A stretch of 32,000 bases of DNA from Candidatus Hermodarchaeota archaeon (lineage in GTDB: Archaea; Asgardarchaeota; Heimdallarchaeia; Hodarchaeales; Hodarchaeaceae). Made by a program: the position numbers and the translations under genes. Below the pieces are notes generated by a model. That model was not told where the DNA came from. It was given only the letters and a program-made list of their open reading frames with translations, and ran no database searches. Below, piece after piece: positions 3,031 to 26,998 of this stretch (within the stretch, counting starts at the first letter, position 1; each line of letters starts with the position of its first letter). Location of the stretch: NCBI GenBank assembly GCA_048886185.1, contig JBHLKY010000012.1, positions 139,313 through 171,312 on the forward strand, read 5' to 3'.

Positions 3031-6000
3031 TTATATAACTGGTATTTCCTCTTGAGGATTCGTATTATTTGGTACAACCACGTTTACTTCAGGCCTGCTT
3101 CCTATCCATAGAGCTTTGTAAACTACTTTCATATCAATCTTAAGAACTTTTGTGAACATATCTAATGCTTCACTAAGAGTAATTGAAGGAGTATCTCGTA
3201 AGAGAGCTAAAGATTTATCAAAAAGGTTTATCTGAGCTTTAGGATCAGTAATACTGGCATCTAGGTTCGCTTTCACGATTGCTAAGCGTTTAAGCGCATT
3301 TAATGAAGCTCTAGAAATACTAGAAATTGAAATACCCCGTTTGAATCTCTCTTCTATGTATTTAATGCGTCGACAATCAATATAGAAGGGGGAAAGAAGA
3401 GTTACTGGGAAATGCTGCTTTACAACTTTCTCTGTCATAGATCCCACGAGGACTTCATTAACAACACCCAATTCATGTAGAGTTATTTTTTCTTCAATGT
3501 TTCTCATAATTGAAATGAATGAGGATTTTATATATTCTGGTGGTGTCTCTTTTAAAAATAAGAATATTTTAAATGAAGGGGAAGACACAATTAAGATCTG
3601 AACTTTATTCTTCTCGATAATACTTGTTCTAATACTTTCTTCAATTTGATTTTCTAACAGTTCAGAGTCATGTTCAATGAATAAGTTAACAATATCTGAT
3701 TGAAATGACTCTAAAAAGGAATCGATACCAACTGAAAGACCACCTAACACATCCTGTATCGCACTACGCGATTGATACATAATATTATTTGTATTATAAA
3801 TTGGAATGCCTACAGCAGTGGTAACTAAGATCATATAAGTGTTTAATAAGGATTCTAACCTTTTTTGATATTCACTGATCTCAGATATCTTCTGTTTCTT
3901 CCGCTCTTGATAGGTGATTGAAACTGTATAAACCACAATCACAATACACATCGTACATAAAATTGTCAGAATTACTGCTTCAAGTATAGAATCAAATATT
4001 GGAGGGGGAGGAAAGAAAAATGTAAATTCTCTTCTGATTGAGCCATTTGATTGATTAACTGAATCATATACTTCTATAAACCATTTAAAAGTTACTGTAT
4101 TGTGGAAAGAGAGCATTATTGTATAATGGGTTTGATTAAAAGTCATTGGAACTCTTTTCATCAGAGATTCGGATCCATAACCACCTGTTTCTTCAAGAGA
4201 AGTAATTTCATAATTCAAATATACTTCAGAGACTCCTGAACCCCAATCTGAGATATTTGCCCAGATATTTATTGTAGTTTTATTAATACTGTCAATTCCA
4301 GCCGAATGGATTATTGGTTCCCACCAATCAAACATCTGACCAGAGTTTGTGTACAGGCCTGCCTCATAATGACCCTTAAGAACTCCTTCATCGATAACAT
4401 GTATGATATAGGAGAATTTATGCAAATATTCTATCTGTATCTGATAAGTGTAATGAGATCCATTTAAAATCATTTCAGTTTCATTTAAAATCCATTCGTC
4501 ATACGTATCATCTTTCACTGATAATGTAATACTGTGTGTATTGAATAGATCATATAGCTTACACCATAACAGGAGTTCTCCAATATATGATGTTGATGCG
4601 GTTGTTCCATGGTTAACAACCTTTGCTGGTTGAAAGTTTGATGTTCTTTGATTTATCTCTCCTATGGTTATATTATTTAATGCAGTATCATATATCTTAA
4701 TGTAATAATTGAATGTCTGGTTAGAATCCACAATAATTGATTCGACATAATGTGATCCGTTATAACGCATTTCTTTTTTTTCTATCCATGAACCAAATCT
4801 ATTCAAGAAATTTATGGTAAGGTTGACACTATCAATAACACCAAATGGATCAGTAGCATTAGCCCAAAAGGTTAACAGGCATTCATATTGATTCCAAGTT
4901 GTGTTTAAAAAGCCAAATTCATAACAAATTGGATCTGTTTTATCATAAATAGTGATTTTTTGGGGGGAAGTGGATATATTGTTTCCACTATTATCAAAAG
5001 CAGTAATAAAATACCAGAAAGCACGATCAGGAACAAATCCATGTATATAGTAAATGTAAATGTTACCAGTTCCATTCCAATGCATTACTAGTCCGCTATA
5101 ATCAGAAACGTATGTGTAATCCAAGAGAACAGATGAATTATCATCAAATAATCCACTACCATAAGGACTCTCTTCAACTTCAGCCCAGATGACAACTGTT
5201 CCATTCTGGTACACAATTGATTCAGTTCTCGTAATATGTGGAGGAGCATTATCAGAAATTGTTATACTTTTAGAAATGACCCCCAAATTCCCCGCATTGT
5301 CTTCTACCCAAACTTTGATTAACACTTGATCTCCGAAAGGAAAGGTATAGGATGTTTTATATCGATAAAAGACATCATAATCCATTTCCAATAATATATG
5401 ATTCTCTAAATGAGTGAAATTAACATAAAAAGTATTATTCACATAGTAATTATCCCCGTAAGGATCAATCGCATATACAAAGACGGTTATTTCACCATCA
5501 TTCTCAGTAGAGTTTTCAATTGAATATATAATTATCGGGGAAACAGTATCAGATAATGTAAAGTTTGAAGCTTGATCATTTCCTAGATTATACCAATTAC
5601 CTGTAGTATCAACTGCTGATACATAATACCAAAGACTCTGTAAATTATATTCCAATGAATCAATGCGAGTAAAAAAAATAATATCTGATAATCGATTCAT
5701 TGAAAGATTAGTCCATGTTCCAAAATAATTCTGTGAATATAACAAATAAGCAGTAGTATCATTTAATGGCCAGTCAAGTATTTCAGCATAGAAGTCTACT
5801 GTGCCATTTCCCCAATCTATTTTCCAACATGATACAATAGGTATTGAATTATCATCTATAATGAACGGCCCCTGAATTATTGATGTATTCGAGTTATTGG
5901 CAAAATCTGATGCAGTAATCCAATAGTAAACAACATCATTGCATTGAAGCGCCAAATTATAATAAAAGTGCTCTTCTGATTCAATCATATAGTATGAAAG

Positions 6001-9000
6001 GATATCACCATTTATATCTAGATGTAATTGTACATTACTCTTATTAACACCGCTTTGATAATCATTGTGATCCTCTATAGATACATAAATCTCTACATGA
6101 CCATGGAAATGAGAATCAAAATTATCTAATATATCCTCCTCATCAATAGGTGGTGCTTCATCATCATCAGGGATAACCGTGCAAAAAGGAGGAGATAATA
6201 AGGAAACTTTTGATCCATTTTCATTTCCTAAACTATCTATTGCAGAATAAACCGTGTAGTTTAAAAGCACACCATATTTTGCTTCAAAATAACATACCCA
6301 AAACCCAGTAATGTTTTGATGCATTTCTAGAAAACGATTATTTACCTGCAATATTACAGGATCCATTAATAAACTCATATTATCTGTAATATTTGCATAA
6401 AACTGAAGTGTTCCATTCTGATAATCAGTAACACCATATTCAACAATAATGGGAGGAAAACCATCACCTAAATAAAGAGATTTAATATGAGTTACAATAG
6501 TATTATTTGCGACATCAATAGCAAGAATATTGTAAAAAATCTGAACATCTATATGGGTTAACGAATCCAATGCTGTTGCATTGTAAAATTGGTTATAAGA
6601 AAATTCTTCCATCGTAAAATTTTCATGAATAAGAAGAACTTCATCCGTTATATTGATTACAGTTAAATTGATATAAACTTCAAAGCTGCTCTTATCACTA
6701 ACATTAGCAAAAAAGGTAGGAGAGTTTTCGAAAAGAATGGAAGTATTAATAAAATAGAATTTATGCACTAGAGGAGGATCATTATCAGTAAATTCAGAGA
6801 CAATTACTGTGAACTCATACTTAGGATTAATCTGATAGGTTGAATAAGCAGCAAATTTAAGAAATGCAAGAGTTTTGTTAATTGAGTCTTCAAATTCTAC
6901 TGTTATATTATAATAATTATAAGGTAGATTTGAAAAGATAGCATACCCTAAATTTGTTGTATTTTGTGTCCAAGTAATTGTTGCATTGTTAAAATTTGTA
7001 ATGTTCACCCTAGCATTAGGAACAATCTTATTATCTAAATCTAAAACATTAATACGCACAGTTGCGTTCTCAGGGCCTCTCTCTAGATCTGCAATTATAT
7101 TTCCGTAAACATCATTATTTTCCTCATCAAAATAAATTACGTAGAGTCTTTCTGATGAAATGAAATCAGTCCGTAATACATTCCAAGCACTTTGAGTAGT
7201 GCTAACTCGACGCCCTGATCCCCAAGATTCTCCCCCGTCAGTTGAATTCTTTACAAAAACTGTATTATTGATGATATAAACAGCATAGAGATCATTATTT
7301 GAAATATCATAAATAGGTTTTGCTTCATCTCCATTTATTCCACAATTTGTAACTATATCAGTTTTTTGACTCCAAGAGCGGTTGTGATCAAAGAATACCC
7401 ATGTTTCTAAATCCCCTGTTGCGCTTAGAATATCATTATTAAGAATAGCATAAATATTATGAGTGTTTGGATCTATTGTTGCTCCCCAATTAGCATTGTT
7501 ATTATAAGAATCTTCTGGAAGTATTGTCTCAGAAATGATAGTTGTTACAAAGGTGGGAGAAGTATCCCATGTATCCAAATCCTCATTATAAGTAAATGAA
7601 TAAAGAGAATTTTCAGAAGCATCTTCATAAAGGCAAAGAATATCTCCACCACTTAGAGGAAGGAGTTGGCCATGGTCATCATCATCCATTAAGAAGGAAT
7701 ATGGAGGAGTAATATCATACCAACTAGAATCAAACTTGGCAAATTGGGGTCCATAGGTCATCCAAGAAGCACCAAAAATTAATCCATCAGTTGAAACTGT
7801 TACTGTACCACCTCCATCAGGTGCATTGTGGGATCCACCAGAAGGCATAATTACGGTCCATTCCCCACTAGAAGAGTCATCTTGAGTATCGAGGTAATTA
7901 TATACCATTTCATCGTCACTGATAGAGTTTGCAACAAAATGGATTTTTGTACCCGTATTATTGGGTGTCCACTGGTCAAACCAACAACTAAAACTTCGAA
8001 ACCGATATTCAGGAGGACCACAATCAATGTTAATTGGACCTTCCCAGATAGTCCCATTATCAGTTGTTTTATAATAGATTATCTCAGCCATACCACCGTT
8101 TGTCTTTTGGAAAAAGATATACCCATGAGAATTATTAATAAAAACGATATTTGGCCCTGGGTTGTATTCATCAGTGGCATCATAAACATCGGTATCAATA
8201 ATGACCTCCGATCCATCCAAAACAACACTGGAGTCTCTTTGTTCTTCAAAACTAACTGTATAGAAGTTTTCCGGATCGTGTTGGTTATTGTACTCAGTTA
8301 TGATCCAATCTGCAGAGATAATTCCCTTATAAAGACGTAACTCGTCAATTACTCCCGCAAATTTCTCATCACCACCATAAGTCTGATCAAGAACGAGACG
8401 CCCGATTTGATAATTACCAATAGTACCGAATGTAGGATTCCCCGTATTGCTCATACTACCCTCATCAAGACCATTTACGTACATTTTACCTATATTTTCG
8501 CTTTGGTTAGCAGTAGCAACTATGTAAATCCATGATTGTCCAGGCCAAGAGGTAGTAGTGCTATCTACATAATCAAAATTACTACCACCAATACCTTCTA
8601 CCTTTGAATAGAGCGCTCCATTATTTCCATGAAAATTATCTTGACCTGCAAAAGTAAACGCCATATTATAGGCATCGTGGTTATAATGGCCAAAAATTGG
8701 CATGGATTCAGCTGAATTTGAATTGAAAGGGGCATTTAATTGCACCCAAGTTGAGATACTATAATTTCCAGTCCCAATTCTAGGATCCCATACACCTAGA
8801 CTAATATAATCATCTATACCATCAAAACCTCGTGCTCTCCCTATTTTACCGACTTCATCAAAAGACCCTTGACTTGTTCCATCAACACTATTTGATGAAG
8901 AACCCATTAGGTCTGTATCTAAATGCCAAACTCCCACATAATTGTCACCCCATACACCAATAGCATTTTCTTGATTTTCAATGGTAGAATTCCCGTAATA

Positions 9001-9609
9001 CATCGATATTGTGGTATTTACATCACTTGATAGAAATGGTAATCGAATCCATGCCACAAGCAATGCATGAGATCCATTGTATGTTACATCAAAATGTTCT
9101 ATCTCATGATCAAGTGTTTTATTTAATGAATCTTTGAAAATAATGTCATCACCATCAACTTGGGTGTGATAACGAAGATCATTATCATAAAGTACTATCA
9201 GTACAGGAAAATCACTCAGATTGGCCTGAACATTACCTCCATCTATTGTAATATTTTTGCGATACTGAAAAGAAGGGGCTCCCCAATTTATGTTTTGAAT
9301 GTCAGCCTTAATAGGGAATGTTAATTGTCTTTCATTTTGATATGAGTTAGAAGGGAAAGATAAGCATGGGTTTAAATTCTCTGGATAATTTATTCCGTTT
9401 TTTTTATTGAATGAGCTTATGTTGAAAGCATTGCCTTTTAGCTGGGGTACTCTTAAGTACTCGTTTTCAACTTTAACCATCTGATTATGAAGAGGGTTTA
9501 CCTGAATAAAAAATTGGGAAAAAAGCGTTAATATAATCATAAATAAAAGGAATTTCAACCTTTCTACTCTTTTTCTGGATTTCATTTCACTATACTCGTA
9601 TTTAATCAC
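3031..9609 (-). CDS. Giant single-pass surface glycoprotein: DUF2341-like, LamG-like, Asp-box propeller, about 9 Ig-like repeats, TM helix, cytoplasmic longin-like domain
   Basis: N-terminal hydrophobic segment. 'YRKNITID...LSDFPVL...WIRLP...ISMYYGN' is DUF2341-like. 'VGVWHLD...FDGIDDYI...FAGVIDELRLY...WIITEYNNQ' is LamG-like. Asp-box-like TTDNGTIW and STDGGESW. Repeated D-x(1-3)-P-P/x-I units, many N-x-S/T sequons, TM helix at about 3910-3987. Confidence 0.8.
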   Translation of the reverse strand: MIKYEYSEMKSRKRVERLKFLLFMIILTLFSQFFIQVNPLHNQMVKVENEYLRVPQLKGNAFNISSFNKKNGINYPENLNPCLSFPSNSYQNERQLTFPIKADIQNINWGAPSFQYRKNITIDGGNVQANLSDFPVLIVLYDNDLRYHTQVDGDDIIFKDSLNKTLDHEIEHFDVTYNGSHALLVAWIRLPFLSSDVNTTISMYYGNSTIENQENAIGVWGDNYVGVWHLDTDLMGSSSNSVDGTSQGSFDEVGKIGRARGFDGIDDYISLGVWDPRIGTGNYSISTWVQLNAPFNSNSAESMPIFGHYNHDAYNMAFTFAGQDNFHGNNGALYSKVEGIGGSNFDYVDSTTTSWPGQSWIYIVATANQSENIGKMYVNGLDEGSMSNTGNPTFGTIGNYQIGRLVLDQTYGGDEKFAGVIDELRLYKGIISADWIITEYNNQHDPENFYTVSFEEQRDSSVVLDGSEVIIDTDVYDATDEYNPGPNIVFINNSHGYIFFQKTNGGMAEIIYYKTTDNGTIWEGPINIDCGPPEYRFRSFSCWFDQWTPNNTGTKIHFVANSISDDEMVYNYLDTQDDSSSGEWTVIMPSGGSHNAPDGGGTVTVSTDGLIFGASWMTYGPQFAKFDSSWYDITPPYSFLMDDDDHGQLLPLSGGDILCLYEDASENSLYSFTYNEDLDTWDTSPTFVTTIISETILPEDSYNNNANWGATIDPNTHNIYAILNNDILSATGDLETWVFFDHNRSWSQKTDIVTNCGINGDEAKPIYDISNNDLYAVYIINNTVFVKNSTDGGESWGSGRRVSTTQSAWNVLRTDFISSERLYVIYFDEENNDVYGNIIADLERGPENATVRINVLDLDNKIVPNARVNITNFNNATITWTQNTTNLGYAIFSNLPYNYYNITVEFEDSINKTLAFLKFAAYSTYQINPKYEFTVIVSEFTDNDPPLVHKFYFINTSILFENSPTFFANVSDKSSFEVYINLTVINITDEVLLIHENFTMEEFSYNQFYNATALDSLTHIDVQIFYNILAIDVANNTIVTHIKSLYLGDGFPPIIVEYGVTDYQNGTLQFYANITDNMSLLMDPVILQVNNRFLEMHQNITGFWVCYFEAKYGVLLNYTVYSAIDSLGNENGSKVSLLSPPFCTVIPDDDEAPPIDEEDILDNFDSHFHGHVEIYVSIEDHNDYQSGVNKSNVQLHLDINGDILSYYMIESEEHFYYNLALQCNDVVYYWITASDFANNSNTSIIQGPFIIDDNSIPIVSCWKIDWGNGTVDFYAEILDWPLNDTTAYLLYSQNYFGTWTNLSMNRLSDIIFFTRIDSLEYNLQSLWYYVSAVDTTGNWYNLGNDQASNFTLSDTVSPIIIYSIENSTENDGEITVFVYAIDPYGDNYYVNNTFYVNFTHLENHILLEMDYDVFYRYKTSYTFPFGDQVLIKVWVEDNAGNLGVISKSITISDNAPPHITRTESIVYQNGTVVIWAEVEESPYGSGLFDDNSSVLLDYTYVSDYSGLVMHWNGTGNIYIYYIHGFVPDRAFWYFITAFDNSGNNISTSPQKITIYDKTDPICYEFGFLNTTWNQYECLLTFWANATDPFGVIDSVNLTINFLNRFGSWIEKKEMRYNGSHYVESIIVDSNQTFNYYIKIYDTALNNITIGEINQRTSNFQPAKVVNHGTTASTSYIGELLLWCKLYDLFNTHSITLSVKDDTYDEWILNETEMILNGSHYTYQIQIEYLHKFSYIIHVIDEGVLKGHYEAGLYTNSGQMFDWWEPIIHSAGIDSINKTTINIWANISDWGSGVSEVYLNYEITSLEETGGYGSESLMKRVPMTFNQTHYTIMLSFHNTVTFKWFIEVYDSVNQSNGSIRREFTFFFPPPPIFDSILEAVILTILCTMCIVIVVYTVSITYQERKKQKISEISEYQKRLESLLNTYMILVTTAVGIPIYNTNNIMYQSRSAIQDVLGGLSVGIDSFLESFQSDIVNLFIEHDSELLENQIEESIRTSIIEKNKVQILIVSSPSFKIFLFLKETPPEYIKSSFISIMRNIEEKITLHELGVVNEVLVGSMTEKVVKQHFPVTLLSPFYIDCRRIKYIEERFKRGISISSISRASLNALKRLAIVKANLDASITDPKAQINLFDKSLALLRDTPSITLSEALDMFTKVLKIDMKVVYKALWIGSRPEVNVVVPNNTNPQEEIPVI

Positions 9610-19115: not shown

Positions 19116-20834
19116 ATGAACACAGCGAACTCTGACGATCATTCTCTTGATAAAGATTTTATTCGGAAAATTGTTTCAGATGATGTTAAAAACAACAAAA
19201 ATAATAGTCGTGTACATACTCGTTTCCCCCCAGAACCAAATGGATGGTTACACATAGGCCACGCGAAATCAATTCATCTTAACTTCAGTATCGCAGCTGA
19301 GTTCAATGGATTATGTAATCTACGATTTGACGATACAGATCCCGCCAAAGAAAGCATGGAATATGTAGAGGCTATTAAAAAAGATATTCAATGGCTTGGT
19401 TTTGATTGGGAAGACAGACTTTATTTTGCATCGGATTATTTTGAACAGTTATACCAATTGGCAATGGGATTAATTAAAGCTGGAAAAGCATATGTATGTG
19501 ATTTAAGTGTAAAAGAGATCAAGCATCAAAGAGGAACATCAGAAGAACCAGGAATGGAAAGTCCCTATCGAAATCGATCAGTAGAAGAAAACATCAAGTT
19601 ATTTGAGAGGATGCGCAATGGAGAGTTTGAGGATGGATCTCGGGTGCTACGGGCGAAAATTGACATGACCTCTCCCAATATGCTTATGCGAGATCCAATA
19701 ATGTACCGAATAAAGAGGGTACCACATTATAGAACTGGAAATGAGTGGGTGATTTATCCAAGCTATGATTATACTCATGGTCAATCTGATGCAATCGAGG
19801 GAATTACTCATTCCCTCTGTTCGTTAGAATTTGAGACGCATAGACCCCTTTATAATTGGTACAGAGACCAACTTCTGAAATTAAACTTGTTAAAATACTG
19901 TCCTGAACAAATTGAATTTTCTAGATTAAATTTAACTTACACTGTTATGAGTAAGCGACGGCTTCTAGAGCTGGTTGAACAAGGACATGTTTCTGGATGG
20001 GACGATCCCCGAATGCCAACTCTTGCAGGATTACGTAGACGTGGTTATCCAGCGGAAGGAATAAGAAATTTCTTGGATAAAGTGGGAATTTCAAAGAGAG
20101 AAAATTATATTGATGTAGGTCTCTTAGAAGCATGTGTACGCGAAGTAATGGACAGAGAATGTAAACGAGTTATGGGAGTTCTCCATCCTCTGAAAGTTAT
20201 AATTCAGAACTATCCCGAAAATAAGGTCGAAGAATTAGATTCGCCCAATCATCCCAAGGATCCCAGTATGGGATCACGGAAAATACCATTCTCCCGAGTA
20301 ATATACATTGAACACGAAGATTTTCTTGAAAAACCTTCAAAGAAATTTTATCGATTAACCCCAGAAAGAGAGATACGACTTCGATACGCGTATTATATCA
20401 AGTGTGTAAATGTAATTAAAGATGAGAATTCTGGAGAAATCCTGGAATTACACGCGACCTACGATCCGGAAACAAAGGGAGGGTATGCTCCAGACGGTCG
20501 AAAAGTCAAAGCGACTCTCCATTGGGTTTCAGCTGAACATGCAATAGCAGCAGAAGCACGCTTATACGACCGACTTTTCAACAAGGAAAATCCAATGGAA
20601 AATGTAAAATTCACCCAAAATCTTAATCCAAAGTCACTAGAGAAGTTAACGTGTTTTGTAGAGCCAAGTCTAGCAAATGCAGCACCAGGAAACAAATATC
20701 AGTTTGAACGTTTAGGTTATTTCTGCGTAGATTTAGTCGATGCAACACCAGAAAAATTAGTTTTTAATCGAACAATTACCTTACGTGATCCCTGGTCTAA
20801 AATCAAGAAGACTCAGAAATCTATAAAGATGTAA
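19116..20834 (+). CDS. glnS: Glutamine--tRNA ligase (bacterial-type GlnRS)
   Basis: '[19 protein letters not shown]', '[10 protein letters not shown]', '[27 protein letters not shown]', 'VMSKR', '[10 protein letters not shown]', 'KATLHWVS', 'QFERLGYF', 'FNRTITLRD'. No eukaryotic N-terminal extension and no C-terminal YqeY domain. Confidence 0.95.
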
Positions 20835-20853
20835 ACACAATAAATAATAACAT

Positions 20854-20859
20854 AAAAAA
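20854..20859 (-). terminator. Oligo-T terminator after tRNA-Gln(CUG)
   Basis: T6 run on the minus strand 4 nt after the discriminator base. Confidence 0.55.
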
Positions 20860-20862
20860 GAA

Positions 20863-20934
20863 CAGCCCCGCCCGGAATCGAACCGGGGTCATCGGATTCA
20901 GAGTCCGAGGTGATAACCGCTACACTACGGGGCT
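20863..20934 (-). tRNA. tRNA-Gln(CUG)
   Basis: AGCCCCG-TA-GTGT-AGCGGTTA-TCAC-C-TCGGA-CTCTGAA-TCCGA-TGAC-CCCGG-TTCGATT-CCGGG-CGGGGCT-G. Full cloverleaf, no intron, no encoded CCA. Confidence 0.97.
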
Positions 20935-20967
20935 TCAAGTAAGGTTTATTTGTATTTCACTTAGTTT

Positions 20968-20975
20968 AAAAAAAA
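20968..20975 (-). terminator. Oligo-T terminator after tRNA-Gln(UUG)
   Basis: T8 run on the minus strand 4 nt after the discriminator base. Confidence 0.55.
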
Positions 20976-20979
20976 TGAT

Positions 20980-21052
20980 CAGCCCCGTCCGGATTTGAAC
21001 CGGAGTCGAGAGGGTCAAAGCCTCTTATGCTAGTCCACTACACCACGGGGCT
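20980..21052 (-). tRNA. tRNA-Gln(UUG)
   Basis: AGCCCCG-TG-GTGT-AGTGGACTA-GCAT-A-AGAGG-CTTTGAC-CCTCT-CGAC-TCCGG-TTCAAAT-CCGGA-CGGGGCT-G. No intron, no encoded CCA. Confidence 0.97.
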
Positions 21053-21240
21053 CTATTTTTCTGACTTTCACTTATTTTTTTAAGCTCTTCTTTTCCCTTA
21101 TATTTTTCTCACTCACTACCTCTTCAATTTATACATTACTTCTATTTAAATCAAATAAACTTCGTCGATATCGATATAGATCATAACTTCTATTGATCAA
21201 CTTCTTGATCCTACGATAATTTTGATCTCTTGCTACTTAT

Positions 21241-26308: not shown

Positions 26309-26998
26309 ATGAAGATGTCAAAGACATTAATATTTATCATATTTCTATTAACGTTGAATCTAGGTACTCTTCCAGTAATAGCAGAGAGTGATCTTCCCAT
26401 TAAAAGTATAAAGAACATCAAAAATAACCAAACTGTCGATATATTACATGTAACGAAAATTGATTCAACCATTTCAATTATTATGGATTATGATCTAAAT
26501 TCAACCTCTCAACTAGCTACGAATGAATCATTAGTAGTTTTAGTTATTTTTAGCATAACTACTGATGAGAATCTATACAAGATTCAGGCAGCAATGCTTT
26601 TCTTTCACACTGGAGAAAATCAATACTTTATGTTCTGGATGCTTGGTGATCCTTATAAACAAGCTCAGGACTGGCAATCAGGTGTAAAAAATGAACATTT
26701 TGAGATAAACGGAGATCAGTTAACTCTAACTTTCATTGAATTCTTGAACATTGGTAACCCAGAAATTGAAACCACTGTAATAGCCAAGCTTGCATTTGTT
26801 GGCGAAGTAAGTGTCACTACAATCAATTTTCGACCAATTCTCGACCAGTTTATAGCTGAATTACCCATATCTTATGAAATCCCATCCATAGGATCTTCAT
26901 CTTCTGAGGAGGCACCAGGAGCTGCCACCCCAGGTTTTACGATCCTTTCTATTGCTAGTGTCGCGATTTCCGTTTTTCTATCCAAGAGGCGAAAGTAA
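26309..26998 (+). CDS. Secreted surface protein with a PGF-CTERM-like sorting signal
   Basis: N-terminal signal peptide 'MKMSKTLIFIIFLLTLNLGTLPVIA'. Ser-rich linker, then 'TPGFTILSIASVAISVFLSKRRK' (PGF, TM helix, basic tail). Confidence 0.8.
   Translation: MKMSKTLIFIIFLLTLNLGTLPVIAESDLPIKSIKNIKNNQTVDILHVTKIDSTISIIMDYDLNSTSQLATNESLVVLVIFSITTDENLYKIQAAMLFFHTGENQYFMFWMLGDPYKQAQDWQSGVKNEHFEINGDQLTLTFIEFLNIGNPEIETTVIAKLAFVGEVSVTTINFRPILDQFIAELPISYEIPSIGSSSSEEAPGAATPGFTILSIASVAISVFLSKRRK

Follow-up and report, generated by a model that had tools for sequence, protein, structure and literature searches.

A bacterial-type glutaminyl-tRNA synthetase gene in a Heimdallarchaeial genome stands beside a second, putatively dedicated pair of tRNA-Gln genes

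The identity set of Escherichia coli glutaminyl-tRNA synthetase (GlnRS) comprises G73, U1-A72, G2-C71, G3-C70, G10, U34/U35/G36, A37 and U38 (Table 1 of PMC9976931). In bacterial GlnRS, an unpairing loop around Leu136 serves to open the weak 1-72 pair (PMC2978374), and the Deinococcus enzyme charges tRNA-Gln with A1-U72 (PMC1865053). On the archaeal side, GatDE recognises A1-U72 together with the D-loop of tRNA-Gln, and reviews published up to 2022 hold GlnRS to be absent from all archaea (PMC9499178); the explanation of Tumbula et al. 2000, as relayed in the same source, is that archaeal tRNA-Gln, with A73 and other differences, is a poor GlnRS substrate and has co-evolved with GatDE. A preprint mentions in passing GlnRS beside cox genes in Hodarchaeales and Kariarchaeaceae (10.1101/2024.07.04.601786), and our literature search found no paper on the tRNA side of archaeal GlnRS. 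Here, we analysed a window, that is, a whole stretch of 32,000 nt, from Candidatus Hermodarchaeota archaeon (class Heimdallarchaeia, phylum Asgardarchaeota; contig JBHLKY010000012.1, positions 139,313 to 171,312), in which a gene for a bacterial-type GlnRS, glnS, is adjacent to two tRNA-Gln genes.

We consider it reasonably probable, from comparison of the genes and their relatives, that this window carries a direct-glutaminylation module in which the bacterial-type GlnRS would be accompanied by a second, dedicated tRNA-Gln pair, with the native pair of the genome left to glutamyl-tRNA synthetase (GluRS) and GatDE. The components of the locus, in window coordinates, are as follows.

19116 to 20834, plus strand: glnS, bacterial-type GlnRS of 572 amino acids (TIGR00440), convergent with the tRNA genes.
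20852 to 20862, minus strand: oligo-U trailer after G73 of tRNA-Gln(CUG), read from the sequence, within the 28-nt gap to the glnS stop codon.
20863 to 20934, minus strand: glnS-linked tRNA-Gln(CUG) (ARAGORN; Rfam RF00005, 65.7 bits, E 4e-14), with A1 at 20934, U72 at 20864, anticodon at 20901-20899, A37 at 20898 and G73 at 20863 as read from the sequence, as well as G2-C71, C3-G70, G10, U20a (20915) and A38; no intron.
20968 to 20979, minus strand: AUCAUUUUUUUU trailer after G73 of tRNA-Gln(UUG), read from the sequence and putatively functional.
20980 to 21052, minus strand: glnS-linked tRNA-Gln(UUG) (ARAGORN; Rfam RF00005, 58.3 bits, E 4e-12), with A1 at 21052, anticodon at 21018-21016, A37 at 21015 and G73 at 20980 as read from the sequence, as well as A1-U72, G10, U20b (21032) and C38; no intron in this copy.

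Both linked tRNAs match the full Rfam model (1-71) above the gathering score of 29 bits. In each, 5' AGCCCCG pairs with 3' CGGGGCU, giving A1-U72, G2-C71 and C3-G70, and the 7-nt anticodon loops, CU-CUG-AA in the CUG gene and CU-UUG-AC in the UUG gene, contain U33. CCA is not encoded in either gene. Immediately after G73 of tRNA-Gln(CUG) the sequence reads UUCUUUUUU, and the oligo-U trailer at 20852-20862 is likely an archaeal terminator. A contig from an independent study covers 20664-21171 with 6 differences, none within either tRNA. The preliminary description of this locus, drawn from the letters of the window, had already recorded A1-U72, A37, G73, these loops and the U-rich trailers, all of which ARAGORN, Rfam and our own reading of the sequence bear out at the same coordinates; the minus-strand orientation, a third set-specific base in the D-loop and two further tRNA-Gln genes, described below, emerged only here. 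The motif UAAGUGAAA occurs upstream of both linked tRNAs in A/T-rich regions (minus strand, 20955-20963 and 21066-21074), at unequal distances of about -29 and -22, and may be a remnant of a tandem duplication or part of a promoter.

Measured against the E. coli identity set, in which G73 and A37 indeed figure as the preliminary description had stated (Table 1 of PMC9976931), both linked tRNAs carry G73, G2-C71, G10, U35, G36 and A37, and deviate at 3-70, which is C-G, and at position 38, which is A (CUG) or C (UUG) rather than U38. Their 1-72 pair is as weak as the U1-A72 of E. coli, with inverted orientation. Relative to classical archaeal tRNA-Gln, the type of substrate used by GatDE, they keep A1-U72 and are without A73, G37 and the native-type D-loop (GGNCCA in the genus). 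The preliminary description took A1-U72 to be kept as the GatDE determinant; the pair is present, but it need not be kept for GatDE, given that a weak 1-72 pair is also a requirement of bacterial GlnRS and that a tRNA with A1-U72 is charged by the Deinococcus enzyme (PMC2978374, PMC1865053).

The enzyme encoded 28 nt from the end of tRNA-Gln(CUG) is assigned to GlnRS by the NCBIfam equivalog TIGR00440 at 716 bits (cut-off 425.8), with the archaeal GluRS model scoring 349 bits, under its cut-off of 402. It aligns over its full length with E. coli GlnRS at 665 bits, compared with 455 bits for human GlnRS. Among species-representative genomes, the best matches are from two Asgard metagenome-assembled genomes at 83-84% identity, one of which is the closed chromosome CP070695.1 (G058), deposited as 'Candidatus Heimdallarchaeota archaeon'; the next homologues, outside the genus, are all bacterial (60-67% identity; Desulfobacterota-like, Nitrospirota, Acidobacteriota and others), and in several bacteria with the closest GlnRS (L008, L021, L045) a tRNA-Gln(CUG) likewise follows glnS in convergent orientation. 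Across 400 genomes of the phylum, glnS was detected in 42, confined to three families of the window's class, and was absent from all 317 phylum genomes outside that class. GlnRS of the other two families is also bacterial-type (52-59% identity; 664 bits against E. coli versus 442 against human). In a tree rooted with a long GluRS outgroup the genus clade joins bacteria with support of 83, whereas once the outgroup is omitted a branch with support of 82.9 has all 30 archaeal sequences on the same side, so that these two trees do not settle whether glnS was acquired once or twice. Two candidate features of the enzyme were rejected: a eukaryote-like GlnRS is ruled out for both Heimdall clades (664-665 bits against E. 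coli versus 442-455 against human), and recoding in glnS, raised by stop codons flagged inside matches, is ruled out because every GlnRS gene is a single uninterrupted frame.

The source assembly (4.84 Mb, 35% G+C, 96% complete) contains four tRNA-Gln genes, the two linked to glnS and two native ones on other contigs, which came to light in a scan that allows for introns and in a search with the pattern of the acceptor stem.

Contig C3 of the source genome (G000:C3), 137780-137892: native tRNA-Gln(UUG), with a 41-nt intron after position 37, G37 and A73.
Contig C14 of the source genome (G000:C14), 26676-26781: native tRNA-Gln(CUG), with a 34-nt intron, G37 and A73 (Rfam 49.6 bits, with an insertion in the anticodon loop).

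The native acceptor stem, AGCCCCG/CGGGGCU, is identical to that of the linked pair, and with G37 and A73 the native pair is of the classical archaeal type. The Rfam search (cmscan) gave no match to native tRNA-Gln(UUG) carrying its 41-nt intron; this call is based on ARAGORN, on conservation and on an intronless orthologue in a relative, which scores 56.6 bits. Its intron can be folded with a 4-bp UUUU/AAAA helix between bulges, a bulge-helix-bulge-like structure, as archaeal splicing expects. An intron-blind scan reports just 11 tRNAs in 4.8 Mb and misses the native tRNA-Gln genes, and ARAGORN run with introns mislabels some genes, its 'Pyl' calls being the native tRNA-Gln(CUG) on C14 and a tRNA-Lys(CUU) on C11. 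The genome also encodes adjacent gatD (470 bits) and gatE (558 bits) on contig C59 and one archaeal GluRS (488 bits). In G058, both tRNA-Gln sets, glnS and gatE share one closed chromosome, which excludes a binning artefact. As a separate observation on the native tRNA-Gln(UUG), the sequence TCA GCC CCG TAG just upstream (G000:C3, ~137892-137905) runs into the tRNA, so that the stop codon of an upstream open reading frame (ORF) may lie inside nucleotides 1-10 of the tRNA, and no promoter space is obvious there.

These native genes bear directly on the origin of the linked pair. The preliminary description had the native tRNAs co-adapting to the acquired GlnRS, a model in which the two linked genes are the only tRNA-Gln genes of the genome and were retuned in place, and an intron-blind scan, which finds these two only, agrees with it. 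That claim fails here: the native UUG and CUG genes persist unchanged, with G37, A73 and introns, on C3 and C14, and a further G37/A73 pair is also present in the closed relative G058. Unless the native copies are unexpressed pseudogenes, retuning in place is refuted for the source genome, and we regard it as hardly credible there; it may describe other lineages, such as those of the closed genomes of family f4, which have one pair. Because the native pair, gatD/gatE and the archaeal GluRS all persist, the linked genes constitute an additional paralogous set, and a better account than retuning in place is that tRNA-Gln was duplicated and specialised next to an imported GlnRS while the native route stayed.

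We aligned 25 linked and 16 native mature tRNA-Gln sequences (41 genes, both isoacceptors) and found that exactly three columns separate the two sets without exception: position 37 (A in linked, G in native), position 73 (G versus A) and the D-loop base before A21 (U in 25/25 linked genes versus C). The stems vary in both sets and the changes are compensatory, so both sets are under selection as tRNAs. The intron between positions 37 and 38 is found in every native gene but one and in none of the linked genes, and five orthologues of the linked tRNA-Gln(UUG) (L087, L088, L093, L096, L133) carry archaeal-style introns of 30-34 nt in the D-loop after position 15 or in the T-arm; introns are evidently gained or lost rapidly in this lineage.

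Identity of the linked genes is 74-89% to the natives and 56-69% to bacterial glnS-adjacent tRNA-Gln, and, judged by this relationship, the linked set descends from archaeal tRNA-Gln. The archaeal scaffold claimed in the preliminary description is thus upheld by these identities together with the native acceptor stem, and the label 'hybrid' is apt. The bacterial arrangement noted above invites another explanation, namely, that the linked tRNAs arrived with glnS from a bacterial donor or are recombinants with a donor 3' end, and hence G73, on an archaeal body: in L008, L021 and L045, the tRNA-Gln(CUG) convergent with glnS has G73, and in L008 it also has A37. The identity values speak against such an origin, as do the seven acceptor pairs, all equal to the native ones and including A1-U72 instead of U1-A72, and the archaeal-type introns in orthologues, and a single base 73 is untraceable to a donor; we therefore find this origin quite improbable.

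The persistence of the three differences is well illustrated by the linked tRNA-Gln(UUG) of G064, which is 88-89% identical to the native UUG gene and yet retains all three linked-type bases. The linked UUG gene of G063, for its part, is 85% identical to the linked CUG gene of the window; therefore, the tandem linked genes exchange sequence, and the changes shared by both isoacceptors may represent one event. The same two positions had been described as changed in both isoacceptors, and both do carry A37 and G73, but this need not reflect two parallel events given that exchange.

We then compared relatives with and without glnS. In a sample of 22 genomes of the genus, 12 with glnS and 10 without a glnS match, the A37/G73 pair of CUG and UUG genes is present in 12/12 glnS-positive genomes, adjoining glnS in 11; in the remaining genome, G056, it lies 117 kb from glnS, and A37/G73 is thus independent of adjacency to glnS. 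Among the glnS-negative genomes, an A37/G73 tRNA-Gln was found in one of the ten (G064), where the gene begins ~100 nt short of the edge of its contig, and glnS would be expected on that side. Native-type G37/A73 genes occur in glnS-positive and glnS-negative genomes of the genus alike. Apart from the G064 gene, A37 was seen in 0/23 other tRNA-Gln genes from glnS-negative genomes (the genus and families f3, f5 and f6), where the copies examined have G37. In families f4 and f7, A37 is again found near glnS, and f7 also has an unlinked G37 UUG copy. The association of G73 and A37 with glnS, which the preliminary description implied, thus stands for the genus pair and for A37, and gives way for G73: family f6, with glnS in 0/12 genomes and a canonical GatE, has G73 with G37 in 5/5 tRNA-Gln genes examined. 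Hence, G73 is compatible with a GatDE-only route and alone is no mark of adaptation to GlnRS, and A37 is the more consistent mark of glnS.

The f6 result is one of several that weigh against a dedicated pair. The genus genomes are related and the genes adjacent, so that the counts represent co-occurrence, not independent events, and one deletion is enough to remove neighbouring genes together. In 6/7 bacterial tRNA-Gln(CUG) genes adjoining closely related glnS, position 37 is G, and A37 is accordingly not a general requirement of this GlnRS lineage. Closed f4 genomes have one tandem pair only, with A37/A73 in the UUG gene and G37/A73 in the CUG gene. Fixed differences between old paralogues can stem from one ancestral event, and, with the acceptor stem and A1-U72 common to both sets, cross-charging by either route is plausible and would do no harm.

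Much of this would be expected if the two sets were redundant paralogues with no division of labour, the three differences deriving from one ancestral event or from other pressures such as intron loss, avoidance of 1-methylguanosine at position 37 (m1G37) or decoding. This explanation draws on the shared acceptor stem and A1-U72, on G73 being tolerated in f6, on G37 in most donor-like bacteria and G37/A73 in the CUG isoacceptor of f4 genomes that have GlnRS, and on the tandem, interconverting nature of the linked genes, whose common features may be inherited rather than convergent. It is less easily reconciled with the stability of the three positions: none has reverted in any of the 25 linked or 16 native genes, even as GlnRS diverged down to 68% identity and the stems underwent repeated change. 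The same holds for the G064 gene described above. Furthermore, two of the three positions are determinants of E. coli GlnRS and the third lies in the D-loop that GatDE recognises (PMC9976931, PMC9499178), and A37 is found in glnS-positive genomes only, the contig-edge case of G064 apart. We therefore hold redundancy to be unlikely, although it carries appreciable weight, and retain a dedicated pair as the preferred interpretation.

Several further tRNA-Gln-like genes were recorded in these comparisons. In family f4, the locus L114 (G004:C187) has such a gene beside glnS at 2229-2302 with an apparent UUA anticodon (loop AU-UUA-UU) and an A1·A72 mismatch, and L104, L105 and L106 have a conserved second tRNA-Gln-like gene beside glnS, at ~1138-1245, with the 6-nt loop UUUAGG. 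Native-type tRNA-Gln genes in L157 (G051), L160 (G060), L156 (G048) and L158 (G051), all from glnS-negative or subclade-B genomes, have A1·C72, A1·G72 or C1·U72 as the first pair.

Changes on the enzyme side are consistent with a GlnRS fitted to archaeal tRNA bodies. The window GlnRS has Thr at the position of E. coli Asp235, which we take to be the residue contacting the 2-71 and 3-70 pairs, and Ser at the position of Leu136. The Asp235 equivalent is Thr or Ser in 12/12 GlnRS of the genus, and the other Heimdall clade has Val, Ile or Asn there; among 78 bacterial GlnRS it is Asp or Asn in 70 and Thr or Ser in none, and the single bacterium with C3-G70 in its glnS-adjacent tRNA-Gln has Val. 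Ser at the Leu136 equivalent occurs only in the window's subclade. The pattern of substitutions suggests reciprocal adaptation of GlnRS to the archaeal C3-G70 pair.

GatE was found in 80/83 genomes of the class, including all glnS carriers, and GlnRS thus has not simply replaced GatDE. The form of GatE differs among relatives. In the window's own subclade it is canonical (~540-578 bits), whereas in a genus subclade comprising G048, G049, G052-G055 and G060 it is divergent (~335-350 bits, the alignment being confined to the N-terminal two thirds). Class-wide, a divergent GatE-like paralogue scores ~335-440 bits versus 540-650 for the canonical form; family f4 and one genus subclade have no other GatE, and in f7, G001, G063 and G072 it stands beside the canonical form. 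In four genomes with divergent GatE (G049, G052, G054, G055), the only tRNA-Gln-like genes are the linked pair and one native-body gene with A73, whose conserved loop reads UU-CUA-U followed by a canonical bulge-helix-bulge intron, giving the anticodon CUA and an unusual U37. This gene stands in place of both native tRNA-Gln genes in these four genomes, and it is confined, in L116-L120 (G049, G052, G053, G054, G055) and L160 (G060), exactly to the divergent-GatE subclade. Global reassignment of TAG in the subclade was considered and ruled out, as the share of long ORFs ending in TAG is ~20% and matches that of controls; either read-through, if any, would be confined to particular sites, or the gene is a relic. 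Elsewhere, the native UUG copies of G048, with a 6-nt anticodon loop and an A1·G72 mismatch, and of G063 look defective.

Such genomes raise the question of whether the native pair and GatDE of the source genome are themselves relics on the way out, with GlnRS and the linked pair doing all the work already. G049, G052, G054 and G055 would show the end state, with the linked pair, an altered native-body gene and a divergent GatE, and the apparently defective UUG copies of G048 and G063 fit the same trend. In the window's subclade, by contrast, the native genes have intact cloverleaves, compensatory stem changes and spliceable introns, and GatE is canonical, which makes the relic explanation improbable for the source genome. 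With both sets intact and a canonical GatDE, the window's genome instead looks like an earlier, dual stage, and the relatives, with native tRNAs lost or altered and GatE diverged, look like later stages, although the order of stages is our reconstruction. Seen together, the locus looks like a stage, caught in the act, in the replacement of one tRNA-charging pathway by another.

A sequence of events can be proposed for a dedicated pair beside an imported GlnRS. Native tRNA-Gln would have been duplicated, yielding copies without the 37/38 intron in which G37 became A37, A73 became G73 and the D-loop C before A21 became U. GlnRS would charge this A37/G73 pair directly with glutamine, and the native pair would still be served by archaeal GluRS and GatDE. 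The weak A1-U72 pair would suit both routes, in that GlnRS must unpair 1-72 and GatDE reads A1-U72. Duplication would thus have given the imported enzyme good substrates while leaving the tRNAs of the old route undisturbed, and GlnRS would have adapted as well, with Thr or Ser at the Asp235 equivalent matching the archaeal C3-G70. In relatives, native tRNAs would later be lost or altered and GatE would diverge. Only tentatively, and as a possibility we do not favour, can one go further and picture two mutually insulated Gln-tRNA routes in one cell, each with its own isoacceptor pair, forming a living intermediate for which the relatives would represent the next steps, including re-use of a freed native body with a CUA anticodon.

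Elsewhere in the window, an ORF of 2192 amino acids (3031-9609, minus strand), with matches limited to a Laminin_G_3/ConA-like lectin domain and DUF2341 near the N-terminus, probably encodes a giant surface protein.

The locus amounts to a natural experiment on the idea of Tumbula et al. 2000, in the form in which PMC9499178 presents it: extra archaeal tRNA-Gln copies are changed at the kinds of positions that this idea names, and GatDE persists along with the originals in unchanged form. With one enzyme and four natural tRNAs, the system lends itself to direct swap experiments, and its relatives seem to lay out in sequence how one pathway replaces another, within the archaeal class that is most frequently put next to eukaryotes. 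Naturally paired synthetase and tRNA sets may also interest genetic-code engineering. The retained native set, the D-loop as a third difference, the caveat on G73, the enzyme-side substitutions and the apparent stages of takeover are new here.

Among known systems, the window GlnRS aligns end to end with that of E. coli (PDB 1GTS/1QTQ family, TIGR00440), including the 1-72 unpairing loop, and the linked tRNAs share with E. coli tRNA-Gln G73, G2-C71, G10, U35, G36 and A37, and their equally weak 1-72 pair may serve the enzyme likewise. They differ from it in having A1-U72 in place of U1-A72, C3-G70 in place of G3-C70, A38 or C38 in place of U38 and an archaeal body; the enzyme differs in its Thr at Asp235 and Ser at Leu136, and the archaeal host keeps GatDE. 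With the archaeal indirect route, for which non-discriminating GluRS and GatDE of M. thermautotrophicus are the paradigm, the genome shares all parts, including natives with A1-U72, A73 and G37, and the linked tRNAs retain A1-U72 and the acceptor stem. The linked tRNAs depart from those of that route at positions 37 and 73 and in the D-loop, the second region read by GatDE, and they stand beside a GlnRS that the route does not need.

Deinococcus radiodurans offers a natural case of a bacterial GlnRS charging a tRNA-Gln(UUG) with A1-U72 and G73, but there the tRNA body is bacterial with G3-C70, GlnRS has a YqeY tail, and GatCAB serves Asn, not Gln (PMC1865053). Bacteria with two GluRS, such as Helicobacter pylori (GluRS1/GluRS2) and A. 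ferrooxidans (Salazar et al. 2003, as cited in PMC9976931), resemble the present case in that two GlxRS-family enzymes share the work and the tRNAs co-evolve. As that source describes them, their split is between tRNA-Glu and tRNA-Gln, and both are indirect for Gln (PMC9976931), whereas here there are two tRNA-Gln sets with the same anticodons, in our preferred interpretation one for each route.

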